Source: an uncultured archaeon
GTDB taxonomy: Archaea > Asgardarchaeota > Lokiarchaeia > Sigyniarchaeales > Promethearchaeaceae
Assembly: GCA_964426185.1 (NCBI GenBank)
Contig: CAYRPF010000096.1
Location: 1 to 9,622 of the forward strand
DNA length: 9,622 nt
Reading direction: 5' to 3'
Under the pieces are notes generated by a model. The model saw only the letters and a program-made list of their open reading frames with translations, did not search any database and was not told where the DNA came from. Below, one piece after another: positions 368-9,535 of this stretch (its first letter is position 1; every line of letters begins with the position of its first letter). A program made the position numbers and the translations under genes.

Positions 368-1054
368 TTAAAGTTCCAATGCCATTTCGGCAATTACTAA
401 CAATCTATTAACCACAGTCCATGCATTCAATGGGTGGGAACTAAATGCTATTTTTTTTACGTTAAGATTTCGAATTTCGGTTGAAAATTCCCCTTTTTGA
501 AATCCACCCACTAAAAAGGCAATATTTTCCGAGGAATTTAATGCAATTTTTTCCTTTACTCGATTCTGTAATTCTCCCCCTGAAACATTTTTTCCATTTT
601 CACTTAGTAAAAAGACACTTTCAGGTTTAAATTGAGATTTTAACCATTCTGAAAGAGTTTCCTTTCTTTTAAAAATTAAATAAGGAGGTTGAGGCGGAAT
701 ATGCTCCAAATCAAGAAGTTGAGCCATTAATCCTTTAAACCGAATGTAATCTCTCGGACATCGCATATCTGATTCTATTGTAAAAAAACCATCTGGACCA
801 TGAAAATGAATTCCCAGTTTCTTATGCAAATTTAGAATTGAGCTTGAAGTGTCCAGTATAAAATGAAAAAGAATATCTGGTCTTCCCCTTTTTTCACTTT
901 CTGGCAGAGTTTTTATAATTCCATGGTGAAGTGCTACATCAAGAATTTCTCCCGCGCGTTTGTATTTCTCCAGATTCTTACGTACACTTTGATGTTGCTT
1001 GATATTTTCTGGTATTCTCTCCAATGCTGTATCTACCAAGATAATATGGATCAT
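368..1054 (-). CDS. nep1: 16S rRNA pseudouridine N1-methyltransferase Nep1/Emg1 (SPOUT class)
   Basis: 228 aa. N-terminal IILVDTALE, then GRPDI, RCPRDYIRFKGLMAQL and the SPOUT SAM-binding loop VGGFQKG, all typical of archaeal Nep1. Confidence 0.93.
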   Translation of the reverse strand: MIHIILVDTALERIPENIKQHQSVRKNLEKYKRAGEILDVALHHGIIKTLPESEKRGRPDILFHFILDTSSSILNLHKKLGIHFHGPDGFFTIESDMRCPRDYIRFKGLMAQLLDLEHIPPQPPYLIFKRKETLSEWLKSQFKPESVFLLSENGKNVSGGELQNRVKEKIALNSSENIAFLVGGFQKGEFSTEIRNLNVKKIAFSSHPLNAWTVVNRLLVIAEMALEL

Positions 1055-1083
1055 TCGTGGAGTTTCTCCATTTTTTAGATGAA

Positions 1084-1503
1084 TTAATTACGATTCTGCT
1101 TTTTTTCTGGATTTTTGGGTTGTAATGATGAAATCCATTTCAAATGCTGGCATGCAGGACCTTTGTATGGGTAACGGGTGGTATGGCCGCAATCCAAGCA
1201 AGTAACAGCCAAATAACTGGCATAGTTTTTCATCTGACCTAAGCGGTATCTGGCATTAACTCCCGCTTTCAGCCAGTGTTTACAGTGATGACAAATTTGA
1301 TGGCGGTATTTGGGGGGAATATTTATCTTGGTTGCCATAGCCAGTCTTCTGGCATGCTCTATATATCTATGCGCTAAAGTGGGATTATTTGATATAATTA
1401 TGTTTGCCTGGTTAAAAAAATAATCAATACGTTCCAAGGCTGCTTGTTGCATAATTTTTTGCCTTTTTTGGCGTTTGGAATAGTAACGCCGTGATTTTCC
1501 CAC
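1084..1503 (-). CDS. rnp4: Ribonuclease P protein component 4 (Rpp21/Rpr2)
   Basis: 139 aa with a GTG start preceded by the SD-like AAGGAG (1520-1515). Motifs ALERIDYFF and LAHRYIEHARRLAM, plus a zinc ribbon ICHHC...VTCLDCGHTTRYP. Confidence 0.93.
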   Translation of the reverse strand: MGKSRRYYSKRQKRQKIMQQAALERIDYFFNQANIIISNNPTLAHRYIEHARRLAMATKINIPPKYRHQICHHCKHWLKAGVNARYRLGQMKNYASYLAVTCLDCGHTTRYPYKGPACQHLKWISSLQPKNPEKKQNRN

Positions 1504-1514
1504 GGTTATTAAAT

Positions 1515-1520
1515 CTCCTT
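1515..1520 (-). promoter_or_regulatory. Shine-Dalgarno-like site for rnp4
   Basis: AAGGAG directly follows the yhbY stop and lies 11 nt before the GTG at 1503, consistent with co-transcription of yhbY and rnp4. Confidence 0.55.
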
Positions 1521-2234
1521 TTATTTTCTTTTTGAATAATTTTTGGATCGACCAGATTTACGATAGGAAGAGTTTTTTCTTGATTTTCCTTTTTTTGCTG
1601 GCTTTCGTGAATATGAAGAGCTCGCTCCTTTTTTATTTCTGGATTTTTTTTTGGAGTTTTTTACATTAAATTTTTTCTTTTGTTTCTGTGGAGGTTTTCT
1701 AATTATTCCTTGTGTTTTTTCCTTCGACTCCATTGCCGAAGTGGAAGAATGGTCAACTTTTCCATAGATTTCATCACTGATTTCATCAATTTCCGCCATT
1801 AATTCTTCATTATCATAATCGATGAATTCTGGTTCCTCTTCCAGATATTCGGAAACTTCATTTTCTCCATTTTCATCCTTATTTAATTGAAGGTTTGAAG
1901 GATTCTCTATTATTGCTTCTTCTGATTTGGTTGATATGGAATCTTTCATGTTTTTATATTTTTTGGGGATTCTAACACCCTTAACTGCTTTTTTAGAAAT
2001 TACCGCAGTAAATCCCCGAACATCTAACACAAAAATGCCAAGATTCTTTATGAGATATTCGAGAAAGTAATCAATTCCATATTCTTGGGCAACTTCTTTC
2101 ATAATTTTAATTTTAAGCATCTTGTTAGATTTGAAAAGCTCGCGTATATGAGCAAGCATGTTGGGTGTAATTCCATTCTTTCCGATGATTACATGAGCCC
2201 TATTCTGTAAGATGGTTTGAAATTCATCATTCAT
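1521..2234 (-). CDS. yhbY: YhbY/CRM-domain RNA-binding protein with a long acidic-then-basic C-terminal extension
   Basis: Residues ~1-82 carry the CRM signature (VIIGKNGIT...MLKIKI...DVRGFTAVIS). The gene is adjacent to rnp4, a usual archaeal neighbour. The remaining ~155 aa are low-complexity. Confidence 0.82.
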   Translation of the reverse strand: MNDEFQTILQNRAHVIIGKNGITPNMLAHIRELFKSNKMLKIKIMKEVAQEYGIDYFLEYLIKNLGIFVLDVRGFTAVISKKAVKGVRIPKKYKNMKDSISTKSEEAIIENPSNLQLNKDENGENEVSEYLEEEPEFIDYDNEELMAEIDEISDEIYGKVDHSSTSAMESKEKTQGIIRKPPQKQKKKFNVKNSKKKSRNKKGASSSYSRKPAKKGKSRKNSSYRKSGRSKNYSKRK

Positions 2235-2335
2235 TCTTTGTCATTCAAGTTAAAGAAGCATGATGGATAAATTTTTGGAGAAAGATTTCTTCATGATCTT
2301 TGGTTCATTTCAATCATCTCAAAAATGCAATAAAA

Positions 2336-2794
2336 TTAATTTTTTGGTTGTTGCCCAAACCAATTCTGAAAATTATCTATCCAATTGATGAAAATCTCCC
2401 TAAATCTATCAAAAGTCGATTTTATTAGAGAATAGTGAATGAAATTCCCTTTTTTCCAACCTTGAATGAGTTGTGCTTTCTCAAGTTTTTTCAGATCACG
2501 AGATACGGCAGGCTGACTTTTTTGCAACAGAGCCTCAAATTCACAAGAGCACATATCTTTTAGAGAGAGTGCCTCAATAATCATCATACGGTCAGGGTTA
2601 GATAATACTGAGAACATTCGATTTAAATATTGCAAATTGTCATTATTGCGTATTTCTTTCGATTTTTTCTGTAAATTGCGGTAATGCGAAACCGAATCAT
2701 CAATATCATCGCAATTACTTAATATATGGCATATTCTCTCTTCAAAAGGTGTTAGTTCATCTGAATTTAAGTGAAAAATTTCTTTCGTTGGCAT
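2336..2794 (-). CDS. arsR: ArsR/SmtB-family metalloregulator (arsenite-responsive repressor)
   Basis: FSVLSNPDRMMII; DMCSCEF (the ELCVCDL-type metal site); SQPAVSRDLKKL HTH; wing KKGNFIHYSL. Divergent from acr3. Confidence 0.88.
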   Translation of the reverse strand: MPTKEIFHLNSDELTPFEERICHILSNCDDIDDSVSHYRNLQKKSKEIRNNDNLQYLNRMFSVLSNPDRMMIIEALSLKDMCSCEFEALLQKSQPAVSRDLKKLEKAQLIQGWKKGNFIHYSLIKSTFDRFREIFINWIDNFQNWFGQQPKN

Positions 2795-2818
2795 GGTATT
2801 ATTATGAATAAAAATGCA

Positions 2819-2837
2819 ATAATCTTTTAAAGATTAT
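2819..2837. promoter_or_regulatory. Perfect 9-1-9 inverted repeat over the putative arsR TATA box; candidate ArsR operator
   Basis: ATAATCTTT-T-AAAGATTAT. The minus strand reads TTTAAAAG about 30 nt upstream of the arsR ATG (2794). Confidence 0.55.
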
Positions 2838-2901
2838 GATCATGAATATGTATAACAATTTTTAAATATTAATTCTAATTTCTAAATATTGAAATTACTT
2901 G

Positions 2902-2950
2902 AAATTTGGTGAGTTTTTTTTGCATTTTCACTCTATACTCTACCAAATTT
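2902..2950. repeat. Imperfect inverted repeat upstream of acr3
   Basis: AAATTTGGTGAGT (2902-2914) pairs with ACTCTACCAAATTT (2937-2950) with one bulged base and a 22-nt spacer. Confidence 0.5.
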
Positions 2951-2985
2951 AGTGCATTTACAACGAAAATGAATATGTGATTACC

Positions 2986-4068
2986 ATGGAAAATTCAGAA
3001 CAAAAAGTCACAGTTGGAGAATCTGAGATCAAAGGAGGGAAAGAGAAAGAGGAAAAACTGAGTTTCTTCGAAAAATTTCTGGTGGTCTGGATTCCGCTAT
3101 GCATGCTTGCGGGAATTCTACTGTCTCAGTACACTAATCTGGGGAGTGCAATTGACTCTTGGTCGGTCCGAGGTATTTCCATACCAATCGGAATCTGCTT
3201 GTTTCTAATGATGTATCCTGCAGTTTTAAATTTACAAGCTTCAGAATTGAAAAAATTAAAGGATAACCCCAAACCCATAATTTTAACATTAGTATCAAAT
3301 TGGATTGTTGCTCCCTTAGTTGGTTTTGGACTGGCAAAATTATTCTTGGGAGATAACGATCAATTATTTGTGGCGGTTATCTTGCTCAGCTCCAGTCCTT
3401 GTACGGCCATGGTATTGGTATGGGGTTCAATGGCACATGGAAATCAAGAGCAGAATGTGCTCAATACCAGTATAAACACCATCACGATTATGATATTCTA
3501 TGCACCCTTGGTGGCTTTTCTCACGGGGATTCAAAACATTGAAGTAGATCGAGTGAGTTTAGCCATTTCTGTATTGGTGTTTATTGGTCTTCCGATTATA
3601 TTGGGAATTATCACACGAAAAACAATTATACCTCGAAAAGGAGAGAAATGGTTCAACGAAGTTTATAGGCCTATTTTAGGCAAAATTTCAATCGTCGCTT
3701 TATTAACCACGTTGATAGTGTTATTTGCTTTGAATGGAAATACCTTATTGGCAAATCCTGAGTTATTGCTTCTCGTATCTGCACCATTATTACTGGGTTT
3801 TGTTATAGTGGTTGGATATAATGTATTAATCACCAAACTTTTCAGACTCAAATACCGGGAGGCAGTAGTAACCGTAATTATTGGATCTTCCAGCCATTTT
3901 GAAATTGCTATTGCTACTGCAGTTACAGCTTACGGTGTTGGTTCAGTGGCTGCCTTAGGGACCACCATGGGTTTATTCTGGGAAATTCCGGTGATGCTTA
4001 GCTTGGTGTATTTTGGTCGATATTTAGGTAAAAAGCATTTTTGGCCTCCAAATACTCCTAATATGTGA
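2986..4068 (+). CDS. acr3: ACR3-family arsenite efflux transporter
   Basis: LSFFEKFLVVWIPLCM, PIGICLFLMMYP, SNWIVAP, PCTAMVLVW (conserved Cys) and SSHFEIAIA (conserved Glu); about 10 hydrophobic segments. ATG 2986 is preferred over the in-frame GTG at 2977. Confidence 0.95.
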   Translation: MENSEQKVTVGESEIKGGKEKEEKLSFFEKFLVVWIPLCMLAGILLSQYTNLGSAIDSWSVRGISIPIGICLFLMMYPAVLNLQASELKKLKDNPKPIILTLVSNWIVAPLVGFGLAKLFLGDNDQLFVAVILLSSSPCTAMVLVWGSMAHGNQEQNVLNTSINTITIMIFYAPLVAFLTGIQNIEVDRVSLAISVLVFIGLPIILGIITRKTIIPRKGEKWFNEVYRPILGKISIVALLTTLIVLFALNGNTLLANPELLLLVSAPLLLGFVIVVGYNVLITKLFRLKYREAVVTVIIGSSSHFEIAIATAVTAYGVGSVAALGTTMGLFWEIPVMLSLVYFGRYLGKKHFWPPNTPNM

Positions 4069-4295
4069 TTATTTTTTCTTGATCAAACTTGATCACATTT
4101 AAATTAGCTGCGGTTCCAGTCTAATCTCGAAAATGTTGCTGAATTGAAGGAAAAGAGTCAAGAATAGATGCCTATTTTATGTATTCATCCATTATCATTA
4201 AAGGTTCAATGAACACCCTTTCTTTTTTCATACTCAAGAAAGAAACAATTTCAGAAAATATCCAAGTATTAAAAAAGAAAAGAATTAAGTTACAT

Positions 4296-5117
4296 TTACT
4301 GCTTATTTGGCCGAAAGTAAATTGTCATCAACCAAATGACTATAATCGAGGATAAACATATAGAAATAATATGCAAAAAGGGCGGAATATCTATACCATT
4401 TGAATATAAATAAAATACATATCCTGCCAAAATTCCAACCACTACAATAAAACTAATGGTTTGCTTTGGTTTTTTTTTAAGCTCCGATAAATTATTGAAT
4501 TCTGGATGAGAATTAACTAAAAAAATACTTGAAAATTTATACAAAATAATAATTAATCCCAATTTGAAAAAATCACCAGGCAAATAAGGGAAAAATCCAA
4601 CCGATAATGCTTTGGTTATTGAAATTTCTTGCAATAATAAGCCGATTAATCCAAAAATATAAATACACATATTTGCGATAATTCCAATTCCAATTAAATT
4701 TCTGAAATCGCCGAAATCCGGTATTTTTTCCTTCATCCAACCTGTTATCCATGCAGAAACTAAGAATCCAATTAAATATCCTCCGCTTGGGCCATATAAG
4801 ACCACCATGCCGGATTTCATTCCTGAAAACCATGGAATCCCGAGAATTCCAGCTCCGATATATAATAACTGTGCCAAAGTGCCATTCTTTTTTCCTAAAA
4901 TCATTCCCGACAGAATTACAGCAAAAGTTTGCAAAGTAATTGGTATGGGAGTAAATGGTAATGGGATAGAAATAACCCCTCCCAAACCAGTAAGCAGTGT
5001 GAAGGATATGATTGCCATTAAAGAGGTAAAGTTTGAAACCATAATTTCGGATTTCTGATCTCCTGATATTTGTGCTAGCTTTTGTGGTCCATGATGTGGA
5101 TTTGATTTTAAGTACAT
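4296..5117 (-). CDS. bioY: BioY-family biotin transporter (ECF S-component) with a C-terminal two-helix extension
   Basis: PFTPIPITLQTFAV, LYIGAGILGIPWFSG, GPSGGYLIGF and PYLPGDFFK (DxxK biotin-binding motif). ATG 5117 is preferred over TTG 5126 because a TATA-like TTTTATAC lies at 5148-5141. Confidence 0.9.
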   Translation of the reverse strand: MYLKSNPHHGPQKLAQISGDQKSEIMVSNFTSLMAIISFTLLTGLGGVISIPLPFTPIPITLQTFAVILSGMILGKKNGTLAQLLYIGAGILGIPWFSGMKSGMVVLYGPSGGYLIGFLVSAWITGWMKEKIPDFGDFRNLIGIGIIANMCIYIFGLIGLLLQEISITKALSVGFFPYLPGDFFKLGLIIILYKFSSIFLVNSHPEFNNLSELKKKPKQTISFIVVVGILAGYVFYLYSNGIDIPPFLHIISICLSSIIVIWLMTIYFRPNKQ

Positions 5118-5140
5118 AATGATCAAAAGAATGTTTATTT

Positions 5141-5148
5141 GTATAAAA
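5141..5148 (-). promoter_or_regulatory. Putative TATA box for bioY (leaderless or short leader)
   Basis: TTTTATAC on the minus strand, 24-31 nt upstream of ATG 5117. Confidence 0.4.
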
Positions 5149-5231
5149 TATCTTCTATCTAATACTGAAAATCTATTCCTTTTTGAATATAATTTCTCTG
5201 CATGGCAATAACCAACGCCGCTTTCTATAAA

Positions 5232-5239
5232 TTTTATAA
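5232..5239 (+). promoter_or_regulatory. Putative TATA box for the 560-aa membrane protein gene
   Basis: TTTTATAA 32-39 nt upstream of ATG 5271. Confidence 0.4.
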
Positions 5240-5270
5240 CTGAAAAAGACAGATTACTAATTAGATTATA

Positions 5271-6953
5271 ATGAAACGTTATTCATCTATAGATTTCTTG
5301 CGGGGTTTAGCCATTGTATTAATGATAATATTACATACGATTAGCGACACTTTGGATATAGACACCTTAACTTCAGATTTAAGCGCTCTTCCCATAATTC
5401 AAATACTGTTGCTGCTGGTCCTACCTTTTTTTGGTGGACTTGCTGGCTTCTTTTTGATGGTTTCGGCAATAGGAAATGTGATTTCCATGCAAAGAAATTT
5501 AGAAAAAGGGATGGATGCAAAAACTCTAATTTTTCGGCAAGTATTGGGTGGATTTTTGTTGTTAATTTTTGCCATGCTTTCCGAAGCAGTAATTGGTTAT
5601 CATGGGACCTTGGGCGAGGTTTTTCTGCATCTTAATGATCTATCTCAAGGGCATTACGATCAATGGGCTTGGCGCTTTCTTCATTTTGAGACGGTAAACA
5701 CTATAGCTTGGTGTATCATCCTAAATGGTTTAGTGCATGCTATTATGACAAGAAATGGTAAATGGAAAAACGTTACCAAACTTATGCGCAACTATTTACT
5801 CTTAATTGTTATCGTTTTAGCTTTAACACCTTTAATATGGTGGTTGGCAGACAAAATCCTTCCTGGGTATCCCTATGCAACCGATCCTGAAACGGGAAAG
5901 TCACTTCTTTATGGATATATTGGAAAGTCTTCTTTCCTTGATATCGTGCTCCGTTTCTTTTTAGGACCATTAGCTGCCAGTTGGGAACCTGTTTTTCCAT
6001 ATTTAGCCGCCAGCTTTATTGGCAGTATAATTGGTATTTATATAAATCAAGATCCAAAGGAAATTAAAACCCATTGGCTTAAAAAATTCTTGTTAGTTGG
6101 TTTAATTATGTTCATTGTAGGCGGTATTGGAGTAATCACAAATATCGTTTTGGTAATGATGAACGAGGGGTTAGATAGCACACTGAATTTGTATCTTTTA
6201 ATATCCGAACATCGATACTGGACTGTAGCAAATGGAGTTCCTATATTAGGGTGGTTGTTTCAATTTTTGTTTTTAAACGGTTTTACGATTTGTGGCATTT
6301 TGCTTTTAATTCGGCTTGTTGAGTTTCGTGGAAAAGGTCAAAAATTTGCTGAAAAGACCAAATTTATCCGAAGAATGGGTTTTATTGCATTTACCATCTA
6401 TACTGCTCAATGGGTCTATAATTTCTTCTACTTTGTGGTTTCATCTATCAATGGAGCTCCTTATCAGCGATTTTTCTGGAACGGAACTTTAATTACACTT
6501 GCCCTAACTTTTATTGCATTCTATATAATTACTGTTTTATGGGAAAAGGTTGGATACATAGGAAGTTTGGAATGGATGATAGCATCGATTGCCTTATTGG
6601 TAATTCCTGGAAAAAAGAGTGCAGAATTAAAGAAAAAATGGCCCAAGGATGTCTTGAATGTTGAAAATGCATTCTATGATGCAGAGTGGCTTGATATTAT
6701 TCCGAGTGAGAAGATAAACCCAAAAGCTCTTCCAGATTCAAGACTTTCATCCAAAATTAGTGCATTGGGATTTTTGTTCTTTCCAGGATCATTCATCGGA
6801 TTGACAATTGCGATTAATTCCGAAAAGAGAGAAGGCAGAAATAAGTGGAATAGAAGAGGCAAGATATTTGGAATATTAGGTGTTGTTTTCTTTTTCACTT
6901 GGGTGTCCTTGTTGTCGTTTCTCAAACTCTCTACCTTTGGAATAAGTTTATAG
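5271..6953 (+). CDS. Polytopic membrane protein of the DUF1624/HGSNAT-like transmembrane acyltransferase superfamily, with a DUF418-like GSLEW motif and a C-terminal helical hairpin
   Basis: N-terminal RYSSIDFLRGLAIVLMIILH matches the R-x2-S-x-D-x2-RG...H signature. It also has FFLMVSAIG, PVFPYLA, a late MGFIAFTIY...GSLEW segment and more than 10 hydrophobic segments. The substrate is unknown. Confidence 0.65.
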   Translation: MKRYSSIDFLRGLAIVLMIILHTISDTLDIDTLTSDLSALPIIQILLLLVLPFFGGLAGFFLMVSAIGNVISMQRNLEKGMDAKTLIFRQVLGGFLLLIFAMLSEAVIGYHGTLGEVFLHLNDLSQGHYDQWAWRFLHFETVNTIAWCIILNGLVHAIMTRNGKWKNVTKLMRNYLLLIVIVLALTPLIWWLADKILPGYPYATDPETGKSLLYGYIGKSSFLDIVLRFFLGPLAASWEPVFPYLAASFIGSIIGIYINQDPKEIKTHWLKKFLLVGLIMFIVGGIGVITNIVLVMMNEGLDSTLNLYLLISEHRYWTVANGVPILGWLFQFLFLNGFTICGILLLIRLVEFRGKGQKFAEKTKFIRRMGFIAFTIYTAQWVYNFFYFVVSSINGAPYQRFFWNGTLITLALTFIAFYIITVLWEKVGYIGSLEWMIASIALLVIPGKKSAELKKKWPKDVLNVENAFYDAEWLDIIPSEKINPKALPDSRLSSKISALGFLFFPGSFIGLTIAINSEKREGRNKWNRRGKIFGILGVVFFFTWVSLLSFLKLSTFGISL

Positions 6954-6991: not shown

Positions 6992-8434
6992 TCAATTTTT
7001 TTCTGATTTCGTTTCCTTCGTTACAAAATAACACCGTTTAGTTCCCATTTTTTTGGAGATAACTATTTCAGCTTTAATCAATTTATCAAGATGGTATTTT
7101 ACTGTGCTACGTTTCAATTGACTCTTAATTATAATTTGATTTTGGTAAATTCCTGGATTTTCTTCTATTATTTGCATAATTTTTAAAGTGACTGTACTTT
7201 TCTTTATCAGAAAATCCACTTTTGTGATTGGATTTTTGTCATAGCAGGGAAAATAAACAATAAAATGTCCAATTCGCTCTGTTTTAATGATCTTGTATGA
7301 TTCTAAAATATTTAAATGCCAAACCAAGTTTCCTGAGCTGATTTTCGCTTGGCGTCGTAATTCGTTAAAATGAATTCCGGGATTATTTAAAATGATATCA
7401 ATGAGTTCATCACGTTTTTCATTCTCGAATACTTCTTCCAATGACAAATTATGACGATTCTTTGGAACTGGATGAATACGGTTCAAGATAAATTGCCGAT
7501 ATTCTTGTTTCGTCATCATTAAGCCAAATATAATGCCAATCACAATTACTCCGACTATAATATATGTAGTTATTGACTTGGGCAGTATAGGTGGAGAAGT
7601 TAGATCAATCCCAATTTTTGGATCTAAAATTACAGTATCTGAAAATTTTTGAAAGGCCAAGTATACAATTGGATCCCCGGCTTCCCTTCCCTCGCTAACT
7701 CCGATGTTAATATCTGTTTCATTAGATGAAGCAGTTTTCATACTGCTAAAATAACCTTGATTCCCAAAATTGACTCGTTTTTCATCGGATTGATCCTCAT
7801 TGTCTTGCTCGGTCGAAGAAACAGTATTTTCTACTTGCCCAGATGAAAGTAAATGGAATCCCAGAACCAGCATTGCATTTTCATCCAGACTGACAAAAGT
7901 ATAATTTTGTATCACAATATCAAATTTGAGGTAACTATTCTGGGAAAAATGATTCCGAAATTGAATTGTAAAAGGTCCTCCAACGCTTGTAATGTTGAAA
8001 TGTTTTGAATTTTCTGTAGTTTCTTGAATCTCACTAAAATCCCAGGAGAGTGAAGGTAGTGAAAATGATGATGCAGGTACTTGACGATCTATATCAGGTG
8101 TATAAATCCCATCTTTGTTTTGATCAATAATCTCAAAAAGTAAAAGGAATTTAACTTCATATCTGATCGTTTCTTGGGAAGTTAACCAAAATGAATACAT
8201 CGGAACATTAAACCCTGTTACCGAAAATGTAATGATCTCATTACTTACCTCAAGTTGATTTCTTAGTTGATCAATTTCATCATCATCTGTTGGAATGTCT
8301 ACAGGAGGTTGAGTAATCGGGGGATCTGTGGTAAGGGGGGTCATACTCTGGGATTGAGCTGAAATTAAGAGAGAGTTACTTGTAATGCAAAGGAGGATAA
8401 GAAAAATACCTTGGAAGTATGTGTGTGTTTTCAT
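6992..8434 (-). CDS. Single-pass membrane-anchored transcriptional regulator: signal peptide, ectodomain, TM helix, tandem winged-HTH (COG3398-like)
   Basis: Hydrophobic signal aa ~8-26 ending ISA-Q; Pro/Thr/Asp linker; beta-rich ectodomain aa ~62-276; TM aa ~288-307. Two wHTH repeats follow: ENEKRDELIDIILNNPGIHFNEL...LVWHLNIL...VYF and TLKIMQIIEENPGIYQNQI...TVKYHLDKL...CYF. Confidence 0.85.
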   Translation of the reverse strand: MKTHTYFQGIFLILLCITSNSLLISAQSQSMTPLTTDPPITQPPVDIPTDDDEIDQLRNQLEVSNEIITFSVTGFNVPMYSFWLTSQETIRYEVKFLLLFEIIDQNKDGIYTPDIDRQVPASSFSLPSLSWDFSEIQETTENSKHFNITSVGGPFTIQFRNHFSQNSYLKFDIVIQNYTFVSLDENAMLVLGFHLLSSGQVENTVSSTEQDNEDQSDEKRVNFGNQGYFSSMKTASSNETDINIGVSEGREAGDPIVYLAFQKFSDTVILDPKIGIDLTSPPILPKSITTYIIVGVIVIGIIFGLMMTKQEYRQFILNRIHPVPKNRHNLSLEEVFENEKRDELIDIILNNPGIHFNELRRQAKISSGNLVWHLNILESYKIIKTERIGHFIVYFPCYDKNPITKVDFLIKKSTVTLKIMQIIEENPGIYQNQIIIKSQLKRSTVKYHLDKLIKAEIVISKKMGTKRCYFVTKETKSEKN

Positions 8435-8490
8435 TCTATTCCCATTAGTATATTTATTAGTAGGGTATTAATGATCATTGAAAATAAAAA

Positions 8491-8511
8491 AATAGAATCA
8501 TAATAGAATCA
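8491..8511. repeat. 10-bp direct repeat x2 (AATAGAATCA) with an 11-bp period
   Basis: Copies at 8491-8500 and 8502-8511. A T7 tract (minus strand, 8486-8492) and the palindrome AATGATCATT (8470-8479) are adjacent. Confidence 0.6.
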
Positions 8512-8523
8512 AAATCGAGTGTA

Positions 8524-9438
8524 TTATGCTTTCTTTCTCTGATTTTTAGATTTGCGCAAGTAAATGATCCCTGATACTGCTATAGAAAGACCAATAAACC
8601 ATATTGAGGCGTATCCTGGTATTGAGAAAATTGAACTCTCTTCCGAATCAAGTCCGTTATCCGTACTGTCAACACTTTCTGAAAGTCCGATTATGGGATC
8701 CAGATATAGGGGTCCATCAAACCGTTCAAAAGCAATATAGGCAAGTGGATTTCCTTCTTCACTACCAACAGAAACACCTGCATTAATTTCTTTTCCCGAT
8801 GCATTTGCTTTGGTTTCACTTTCGAAGTAAGCTCCTCGACCAAAATTGATTTTCTTATTACTTCCCGTTTCATTACTGGTTTGTGTTACTTGTGGTGTTT
8901 CAGTTTCATCAAGTCCTTGTTCGACTGCTATTAAATGAAAACCAATCACCAACATGGCATTTTCATCAGCACTAACAAATTCATAACCTTCAATTTTCAC
9001 ATCAAATTTAAGACTGGCATCGGAACCTAAATGGTTAATTAATTGAATCGTGTAGGCTCCACCGACACTTGTTATGTTGAAATGGGTGATCCCATTGCCA
9101 TCTGTTTCGATTGCACTGAACTCCCAAGAAAGAGCAGGAAGCGCATTGACGGATGCAGGAACATTTGAATCATTTCCGGGAGTATAAACTCCATCTTGAT
9201 TTTCATCTATTACTTCGAAAAGTAAGATGAATTTCACTTCGTATTTTGTATCATTTTGTGAAGGATCCCAAAATGAATACATAGGCACATTTTGCCCACC
9301 GGTGATTTTAATCGCTATGTTATCATTTTCTACATAAATATTGTCTCCACCAATTAAATCAGAAGGTTGAGCAGAGACGATTGAAATAGAAACGATAAGG
9401 AATAGTGCAAAAATCCCTGTTGAAATTTTTTTTTTCAT
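8524..9438 (-). CDS. Exported cell-surface (glyco)protein with a C-terminal IPGY-TM-basic sorting signal (Loki-CTERM/PGF-CTERM-like); paralog of the neighbouring regulator's ectodomain
   Basis: The start at ATG 9438 gives a canonical signal peptide MKKKISTGIFALFLIVSISIVSA-Q (304 aa); the ORF-track start at 9495 runs through the promoter. Sequons NDT, NDS, NIT, NET and NAS; a Ser/Asp/Glu linker; then SIPGYASIWFIGLSIAVSGIIYLRKSKNQRKKA. Confidence 0.8.
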   Translation of the reverse strand: MKKKISTGIFALFLIVSISIVSAQPSDLIGGDNIYVENDNIAIKITGGQNVPMYSFWDPSQNDTKYEVKFILLFEVIDENQDGVYTPGNDSNVPASVNALPALSWEFSAIETDGNGITHFNITSVGGAYTIQLINHLGSDASLKFDVKIEGYEFVSADENAMLVIGFHLIAVEQGLDETETPQVTQTSNETGSNKKINFGRGAYFESETKANASGKEINAGVSVGSEEGNPLAYIAFERFDGPLYLDPIIGLSESVDSTDNGLDSEESSIFSIPGYASIWFIGLSIAVSGIIYLRKSKNQRKKA

Positions 9439-9461: not shown

Positions 9462-9535
9462 AGCAAATTTTCACTATATAAGTGATGAGGAGCAAATTTC
9501 AACATAAGAAAGATCAACATAAGAATTTAAATTCT
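9462..9535 (-). promoter_or_regulatory. Promoter of the surface-protein gene: TATA box inside an inverted repeat, plus direct repeats and a palindrome
   Basis: TCACT-ATATA-AGTGA (9471-9485; the minus strand contains TTATATAG); AGCAAATTT x2 (9462-9470, 9491-9499); TCAACATAAGAA x2 (9499-9510, 9514-9525); perfect palindrome AGAATTTAAATTCT (9522-9535). Confidence 0.55.

Follow-up and report, generated by a model that had tools for sequence, protein, structure and literature searches.

The gene pair described here raises the question of why an archaeal transcription regulator would display, on the outside of the cell, a paralogue of the surface protein encoded by the gene next to it. The pair is located on a contig (C96) whose full 9,622 bp constitute the window analyzed in this study, and comprises gene A, which encodes an anchored surface protein, and gene B, which encodes a membrane-tethered regulator with an ectodomain of the same family. 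The genome is congeneric with Ca. Harpocratesius repetitus (Promethearchaeota), as expected from the Asgard origin proposed in a first-pass annotation of the DNA. Our analyses determined that the pairing of such a regulator with a homologous surface protein is a general rule, and they led us to propose a two-gene surface-to-promoter feedback module in which B would activate the A-B operon and read A, a proposal that as a whole we consider to have an even chance of being correct.

Both genes are on the minus strand, as are all the elements of the pair and its promoter given below, and they are separated by 89 nt. Gene A (8524–9438) encodes, from its ATG, a 304-residue protein for which the open reading frame, hydropathy and structure indicate a signal peptide (about residues 1–23, 9370–9438, by hydropathy), a GLMP-like ectodomain (residues 30–252, 8683–9351) that has a DxNxDG loop with four N-glycosylation sequons near it, and a Loki-CTERM-like tail (8524–8622) composed of IPGY (residues 273–276), a transmembrane (TM) helix and a basic cluster. 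The tail matched the NF033507 (Loki-CTERM) profile over its full length at 13.6 bits, under the cut-off of 19.9, and the homologues P0004 and P0123 exceed that cut-off (23.0 and 20.7 bits). Gene B (6992–8434) encodes a 480-residue protein identified as a type-I membrane-tethered transcription regulator from its open reading frame, Pfam matches and hydropathy. It is composed of a paralogue of the A ectodomain (residues 62–277, 7604–8251; 48–50% identity by sequence comparison), a TM helix (residues 288–306, 7517–7573, by hydropathy) with GIIFG at residues 300–304, a conserved juxtamembrane linker (residues 307–337, 7424–7516), whose residues Y, R, H, L, E, V, E and N are invariant or near-invariant in an alignment of homologues, and two winged helix-turn-helix (wHTH) domains. 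The latter were both identified by Pfam, the first as PF24266 HVO_0163_N (residues 338–396, 7247–7423; 67.3 bits, cut-off 31) and the second as HTH_24/MarR-like (about residues 413–473, 7016–7198; 44.2 bits, cut-off 21.9), and both are C-terminal to the TM helix. By hydropathy, each protein has a signal-like segment and a single TM; in A these are N-terminal and C-terminal, respectively.

These results bear out the first-pass description of two adjacent co-directional genes with a common ectodomain and divergent C-termini, in A the IPGY-TM-basic tail and in B the TM with GIIFG followed by two wHTH domains. The hand count on which it relied, 74 ungapped identities over 120 residues, was exact, and BLASTP found 110 identities over 220 residues (50%, E 1e-72), reaching the shared LDPxIG end. 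At the DNA level 231 of 360 positions are identical over the 120-codon stretch (83, 94 and 54 of 120 at codon positions 1, 2 and 3, respectively), the third positions being near saturation. The ratios of nonsynonymous to synonymous substitution (dN/dS) relative to the orthologous locus L120 were 0.095 for A, 0.20 for the B ectodomain and 0.15 for the B cytoplasmic part; hence both genes are under purifying selection (dN/dS 0.10–0.20), and the value near 1 in one copy that had been raised as a possibility was not seen.

Regulators with a TM helix and tandem wHTH domains were found in 71 of the 75 genomes of the order, and in nearly every full-length homologue the TM comes before the wHTH pair. 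The search proposed in the first-pass annotation revealed that at least 84 of 99 distinct ectodomain-bearing regulators adjoin a C-terminally anchored protein of a homologous ectodomain class, and the pairing is therefore a general rule across the order and not a one-off duplication or fusion. The partner ectodomains belong to three or more families that are unrelated to each other, among them a GLMP-like one and a GAIN/ZU5-like one with an HFS motif, and partner profiles match their own regulator class only (84 of 86 for class I at E<1e-3), with no cross-class matches except between the related classes II and IV, both of which are GLMP-like. Class I, the commonest form of the module, includes 74 pairs, one of them a second pair in the window genome on contig C109 (L008:4402-5097 and 2871-4283), and its partners and regulators are matched at 98.5% in profile-profile comparison with an identity of only about 17–20%. 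In class III the partner is downstream of the regulator, additional ectodomain classes occur in L150 and, in another Asgard family, in L159, and a split three-gene form (L166) encodes a surface protein, a receptor with the same ectodomain and a soluble wHTH pair. P. syntrophicum MK-D1 has class I and class IV pairs, and L. ossiferum a class IV pair. Type II, the close ectodomain type to which the window pair belongs, has a scattered distribution, occurring in 7 of the 161 genomes of the taxonomic class; it is paired in the window, L120, L002 and L007, and alone in L003, L006 and L133.

On the tree of GLMP-like ectodomains the regulators join the type of their partner (support 100/100), so that the expected co-clustering of partners stands at the level of types, and a single clade of all regulators was rejected by the approximately unbiased (AU) test (p-AU 2.8e-5). 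The L002 pair is 80% identical with a synonymous divergence (dS) of 0.58, versus 48% and a dS of about 2 for the window pair. Since an all-regulator clade is rejected and the L002 pair has the much lower dS, the sensor has been re-made from, or homogenized with, its partner more than once. The sensor is therefore copied from the partner when a lineage is founded, and is then inherited and specialized. Monophyly of the type II regulators was rejected by neither the ectodomain tree (p-AU 0.36) nor the wHTH tree (p-AU 0.069), and the free wHTH tree, which has these regulators in two places, suggests two origins for them.

The promoter of A contains a candidate operator, a 19-bp site of two halves (9486–9504; left TGTTGA, right TCCTCA), located 4 nt upstream of a TATA box (9475–9481). 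Across classes, a 19-bp two-half site occurs upstream of the first gene and ends 4–5 nt before the TATA box, and the family consensus of its left half is TGGGRA. The matrix used for scoring was trained on 35 class I promoters with the window genome left out, and 44 of the 6.5 million positions in the genome score at least as high as the window site (10.6), or about 1e-3 for this 184-nt region. The same site and spacing are present at L120 (score 17.9), and the window-type site occurs once in the assembly. In the ranking of the genome scan the C109 pair came first, followed by two class III-like genes at contig ends, and thus the top three sites all precede module genes. Each of those two genes (L153:2864-3592 on C18 and L154:2027-2695 on C1) runs off its contig behind a class III-type site, the C1 copy being interrupted after about 92 codons, and together they are probably a third module broken by assembly. 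The site is not simply an element common to promoters in general, since the window score is reached in only 6 of 2176 upstream regions. Upstream of A there are also 12-bp direct repeats and a 14-bp palindrome; unlike the TATA-adjacent site, these are not conserved in L120, and they were set aside.

The site also precedes a two-TM tandem-wHTH operon in another Asgard family (L156-158), and because these loci carry the site but no ectodomain, it belongs with the wHTH pair and not with the surface genes. Within the pair, the recognition helix of wHTH 2 opens with RST in B and with HKT or RKT in most relatives. Regulators with HKT or RKT in this helix go with a G-run in the left half of the site, and those with S or N for the K/R go with a left half that has no G-run, in four lineages (window/L120, L142, L150 and L156-158). 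The role of regulated output, one of several the first-pass annotation had considered for A, is consequently the best supported, with a candidate operator of the wHTH pair at the promoter of the surface gene. Stand-alone GLMP-like surface genes with good copies of the site were also observed (L136:3336-6089, L168 and L003; scores 29, 27, 23 and 17), which suggests control in trans by a non-adjacent regulator.

Between the two genes, a T-run after A (8481–8492) is a probable attenuating terminator separating partner from regulator. A run of seven Ts within 70 nt of the partner stop codon was counted at 82 of 84 loci versus 128 of 419 (31%) co-directional control genes. A short stretch after the window T-run (8462–8477, ATGATCATTAA) is identical in L120, unlike the rest of the spacer, and is a possible internal promoter element for B.

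Considered together, the gene layout and promoter sequences make it very probable that B binds the 19-bp site from the membrane, with one winged helix on each half, and controls the A-B operon, with the T-run keeping A abundant and B scarce through known archaeal termination. At the site B would activate the operon, and we favor a role as an activator compensating for a poor BRE (the TFB recognition element), by analogy with TFB-RF1 (PF1088) of Pyrococcus furiosus, which binds just upstream of the weak BRE of its own operon (PMC5937170). Like TFB-RF1, B is encoded behind its presumed target gene, and its site immediately precedes a weak BRE and TATA box with constant spacing; the likeness is one of gene layout and site position, as the TFB-RF1 motif is different and no ectodomain paralogy is described for it. 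The BRE position beside the window TATA box is pyrimidine-rich and therefore poor relative to a consensus that comes from Pyrococcus (PMC5937170) and may not be that of Asgard archaea. On the input side, plentiful intact A would keep B inactive, and B would be freed once A is lost, shed or occupied, so that A would be switched back on and the feedback loop closed. That the B ectodomain reads A itself, through an inherited like-with-like surface, is a tentative suggestion that we place somewhat below an even chance. A complex prediction for the A and B ectodomains gave a score of 0.01, which speaks neither for nor against contact.

Several findings weigh against this reading. Inside one ectodomain type, orthologues group by role, window A being 81% identical to A of L120 and 48% to its own B; the partner co-clustering expected from the first-pass annotation does not extend to this level, and there is no fast lock-and-key co-variation, because the grouping is not by locus. 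The covariation of helix and site was recognized post hoc and in four lineages, with L156-158 examined afterwards. The right half of the site reaches into the BRE position, which fits repression too, and the genome-wide BRE profile is too noisy to discriminate between activator and repressor. Type II surface genes stand alone in H. repetitus (L003), L. ossiferum (L133) and L006, hence A can exist without an adjacent B, and some of these stand-alone genes carry a site. Lastly, about a dozen regulators have no detectably homologous neighbor (L011, L017, L020, L058, L062, L063, L069, L140, L142, L144 and L145).

What the ectodomain itself might bind is addressed by its predicted structure. The AlphaFold2 model (mean predicted local distance difference test, pLDDT, 86.8) is an all-beta supersandwich, and GLMP was its best match in three structure searches: the GLMP luminal domain 6nyq ranked first in Foldseek (TMq 0.64, E 1.4e-6), an exhaustive structural alignment against 48,161 chains found GLMP chain 8r8q_B (Z 17.1, root-mean-square deviation 2.9, 207 residues aligned; next best Z 13.4), and an Atlas search again returned GLMP (TM-score 0.78). 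The ectodomain is therefore modeled with the GLMP luminal fold. Sequence searches of PDB and Pfam gave no match for it, and neither A nor B matches PF15065 (NCU-G1), to which 5 of 46 relatives match weakly (best E 5.2e-5). GLMP/NCU-G1 (PF15065; PDB 6NYQ, 8R8Q chain B) resembles A in being a single-pass type-I protein with a sequon-rich beta-sandwich, but it has only about 10% identity to the window proteins and partners the MFSD1 transporter. No major facilitator superfamily (MFS) transporter gene was found in the window by Pfam scan. A co-directional MFS transporter gene directly behind the stand-alone GLMP-like gene of H. repetitus (L003:6001-8508) recalls GLMP-MFSD1; such a neighbor was not seen at the other loci checked, save for an opposite-strand MFS gene in L002. 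A search of 301 Asgard genomes detected the GLMP-like domain family in 197; most members are anchored surface proteins, and in P0117, P0118, P0119, P0121, P0124, P0126 and P0217 a single chain has two such domains in tandem before one anchor.

The main rival explanation is that A binds an outside ligand, such as a glycan or a calcium-dependent partner, and that B detects the same ligand and induces A, which requires no touch between A and B and leaves the DNA side identical to that of the reading we favor. On either account, like-with-like detection or a shared ligand, the sensor would have to be a copy of the output, and preserving ligand specificity would call for a sensor re-made from the output gene. 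Stand-alone A genes are easily explained by a shared ligand, the fold is in the supersandwich class of carbohydrate-active enzymes, and the DxNxDG loop is kept in 41 of 46 surface proteins and 15 of 18 regulators, although we infer only that this loop may bind calcium. Against this explanation, no small ligand is known for GLMP, the best structural match, which serves as an accessory subunit of a transporter (PMC11252000), the members of class I pairs retain only the low identity noted above, and the pairing rule spans folds without a common ligand chemistry. We consider a shared ligand unlikely on balance.

A different proposal concerns the output of B and would fit either input: in a Notch-like manner, a signal would cause B to shed its ectodomain and be cut within the membrane, and the freed tandem wHTH domains would act on DNA. 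The type-I topology, the small residues common in regulator TM helices (75 of 101) and the split cassettes in which a soluble wHTH pair behind a receptor (L166) indicates that the domain can work untethered are all in its favor. However, no conserved cleavage signature was identified, and the GxxxG motif that the first-pass annotation had picked out as a feature of the TM is no family feature, being present in 4 of 101 regulator helices. Archaeal DNA, moreover, is not enclosed by a nuclear envelope, and tethered regulators bind DNA without leaving the membrane (PMC10269533). A self-cleavage-type motif does occur in class I, whose ectodomain model (pLDDT 92.5) is nearest to GAIN, FIIND and ZU5 domains (Z up to 7.3, which is middling), members of an autoproteolytic superfamily (PMC3482391). 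The motif, an invariant HFS just before the last strand, is in the class I surface proteins, which may self-cleave, and is missing from the class I regulators, and cleavage of B thus seems improbable to us. A single fold for all ectodomains was also considered and rejected, since class I and GLMP-like profiles match each other at 0.2–0.5% probability and their structural neighbors differ. The least probable explanation is that the copy is a by-product of tandem duplication, with no specificity in the ectodomain: it would only equip B with a signal peptide, a TM anchor and a glycosylated, stable spacer, and B would autoregulate its operon but respond to something else, such as membrane state or protease load. 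In its favor, duplication-fusion most readily draws on neighboring genes, some regulators carry a non-matching ectodomain or none, and the B ectodomain evolves faster than that of A. Nevertheless, the match persists at about 85% of loci, is re-established for each new ectodomain family, occurs also where the partner is downstream (class III) and in three-gene cassettes, and involves a B ectodomain under purifying selection, making this very doubtful.

Comparison with known systems helps to define what is distinctive about the A-B pair. Transmembrane transcription regulators (TTRs), including ToxR, TcpP, CadC and the archaeal ArnR, combine in a single chain a DNA-binding domain, a TM helix and an outside domain (Demey et al. 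2023, PMC10269533). B has the domains by which TTRs are defined, as its predicted DNA-binding domain (PF24266 and HTH_24 above cut-off) and TM are both present, and regulation from the membrane is predicted for it. Unlike the TTRs described, B is type-I with a signal peptide, has its tandem wHTH domains at the C-terminus, and has as its sensor a paralogue of the adjacent gene product; neither Asgard nor Loki is mentioned in that paper (PMC10269533). The pair also resembles the co-component systems ToxR/ToxS, VtrA/VtrC and TcpP/TcpH, in which a two-gene cassette encodes a TTR together with an outside partner anchored in the membrane (Kinch et al. 2022, PMC9214523). Membership in that group was rejected on topology and partner fold: the co-component HTH is N-terminal and cytoplasmic with the outside domain C-terminal, the opposite order to B, and the partner is lipocalin-like, whereas the A ectodomain is modeled as a GLMP-like supersandwich. 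In addition, A differs from co-component partners in being upstream, in front of a terminator-like T-run, in having the ectodomain family of the regulator, and in looking like the target gene. The cytoplasmic part of B is a member of the HVO_0163-type tandem wHTH family (PF24266 then a second wHTH, by curated cut-off), from which it differs in its fusion to a TM and ectodomain, and no characterized function for that family was found in our literature search. Notch and B share the order of signal peptide, ectodomain, TM and transcription effector. Notch has EGF, LNR and ankyrin domains, and its released co-activator does not bind DNA. B has none of those domains, with Pfam finding only HTH families, and direct DNA binding is predicted. 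The Notch-like character suggested in the first-pass annotation is therefore retained for the type-I topology and set aside for domains and cleavage, of which there is no sign, leaving B as a type-I regulator within the TTR class (PMC10269533).

Neither the module nor GLMP in Asgard archaea was described in the papers found by our literature search, whose coverage did not include subscription journals. The module is a putative surface-to-gene circuit, near-universal and apparently undescribed, of the order to which both cultured Asgard model organisms belong. It provides a way into the control of the Asgard cell surface, and it places GLMP-like and GAIN/ZU5-like domains in a signaling role outside eukaryotes. 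As the input domain, output gene, candidate operator and specificity residue are all named, it is testable in vitro now. More speculatively, and with a likelihood we judge to be low, it may exemplify a general Asgard class of self-copy sensors, in which a conserved tandem-wHTH chassis tethered in the membrane has repeatedly been fitted with a copy of the surface protein it controls (GLMP-like, GAIN/ZU5-like and self-cleaving, or other) and detects that protein like-with-like, on the same or a neighboring cell, giving contact- or shedding-dependent transcription. If true, such sensors would consist of domains that later found use in eukaryotic lysosomal proteins and adhesion receptors.

Some further observations were made on module genes elsewhere. 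Class I and class IV pairs can occur within about 7 kb (L137, L138), facing each other around a Cys-rich membrane gene. In the window genome, contig C3 has a gene for a 796-residue membrane protein (L139:3220-6305) whose cytoplasmic tail resembles the split-cassette receptors, and which overlaps a soluble tandem-wHTH gene with dnaJ and dnaK alongside. A type II regulator in a genome of the genus Lokiarchaeum (L134:1444-4257) has a stop inside its ectodomain that leaves the wHTH pair as a separate frame. A 103-codon fragment of the window-type ectodomain without signal peptide or tail, at C7:62440-62754 of the window genome (L009, L132), looks like a gene remnant. Within the window itself, the neighbors of the pair (368–6953) are ordinary: Nep1/EMG1, Rpp21, YhbY-like and BioY genes, an ArsR regulator gene divergent from an Acr3-like (SBF family) transporter gene, and a gene for an acyltransferase_3/HGSNAT-like membrane protein that converges on B.

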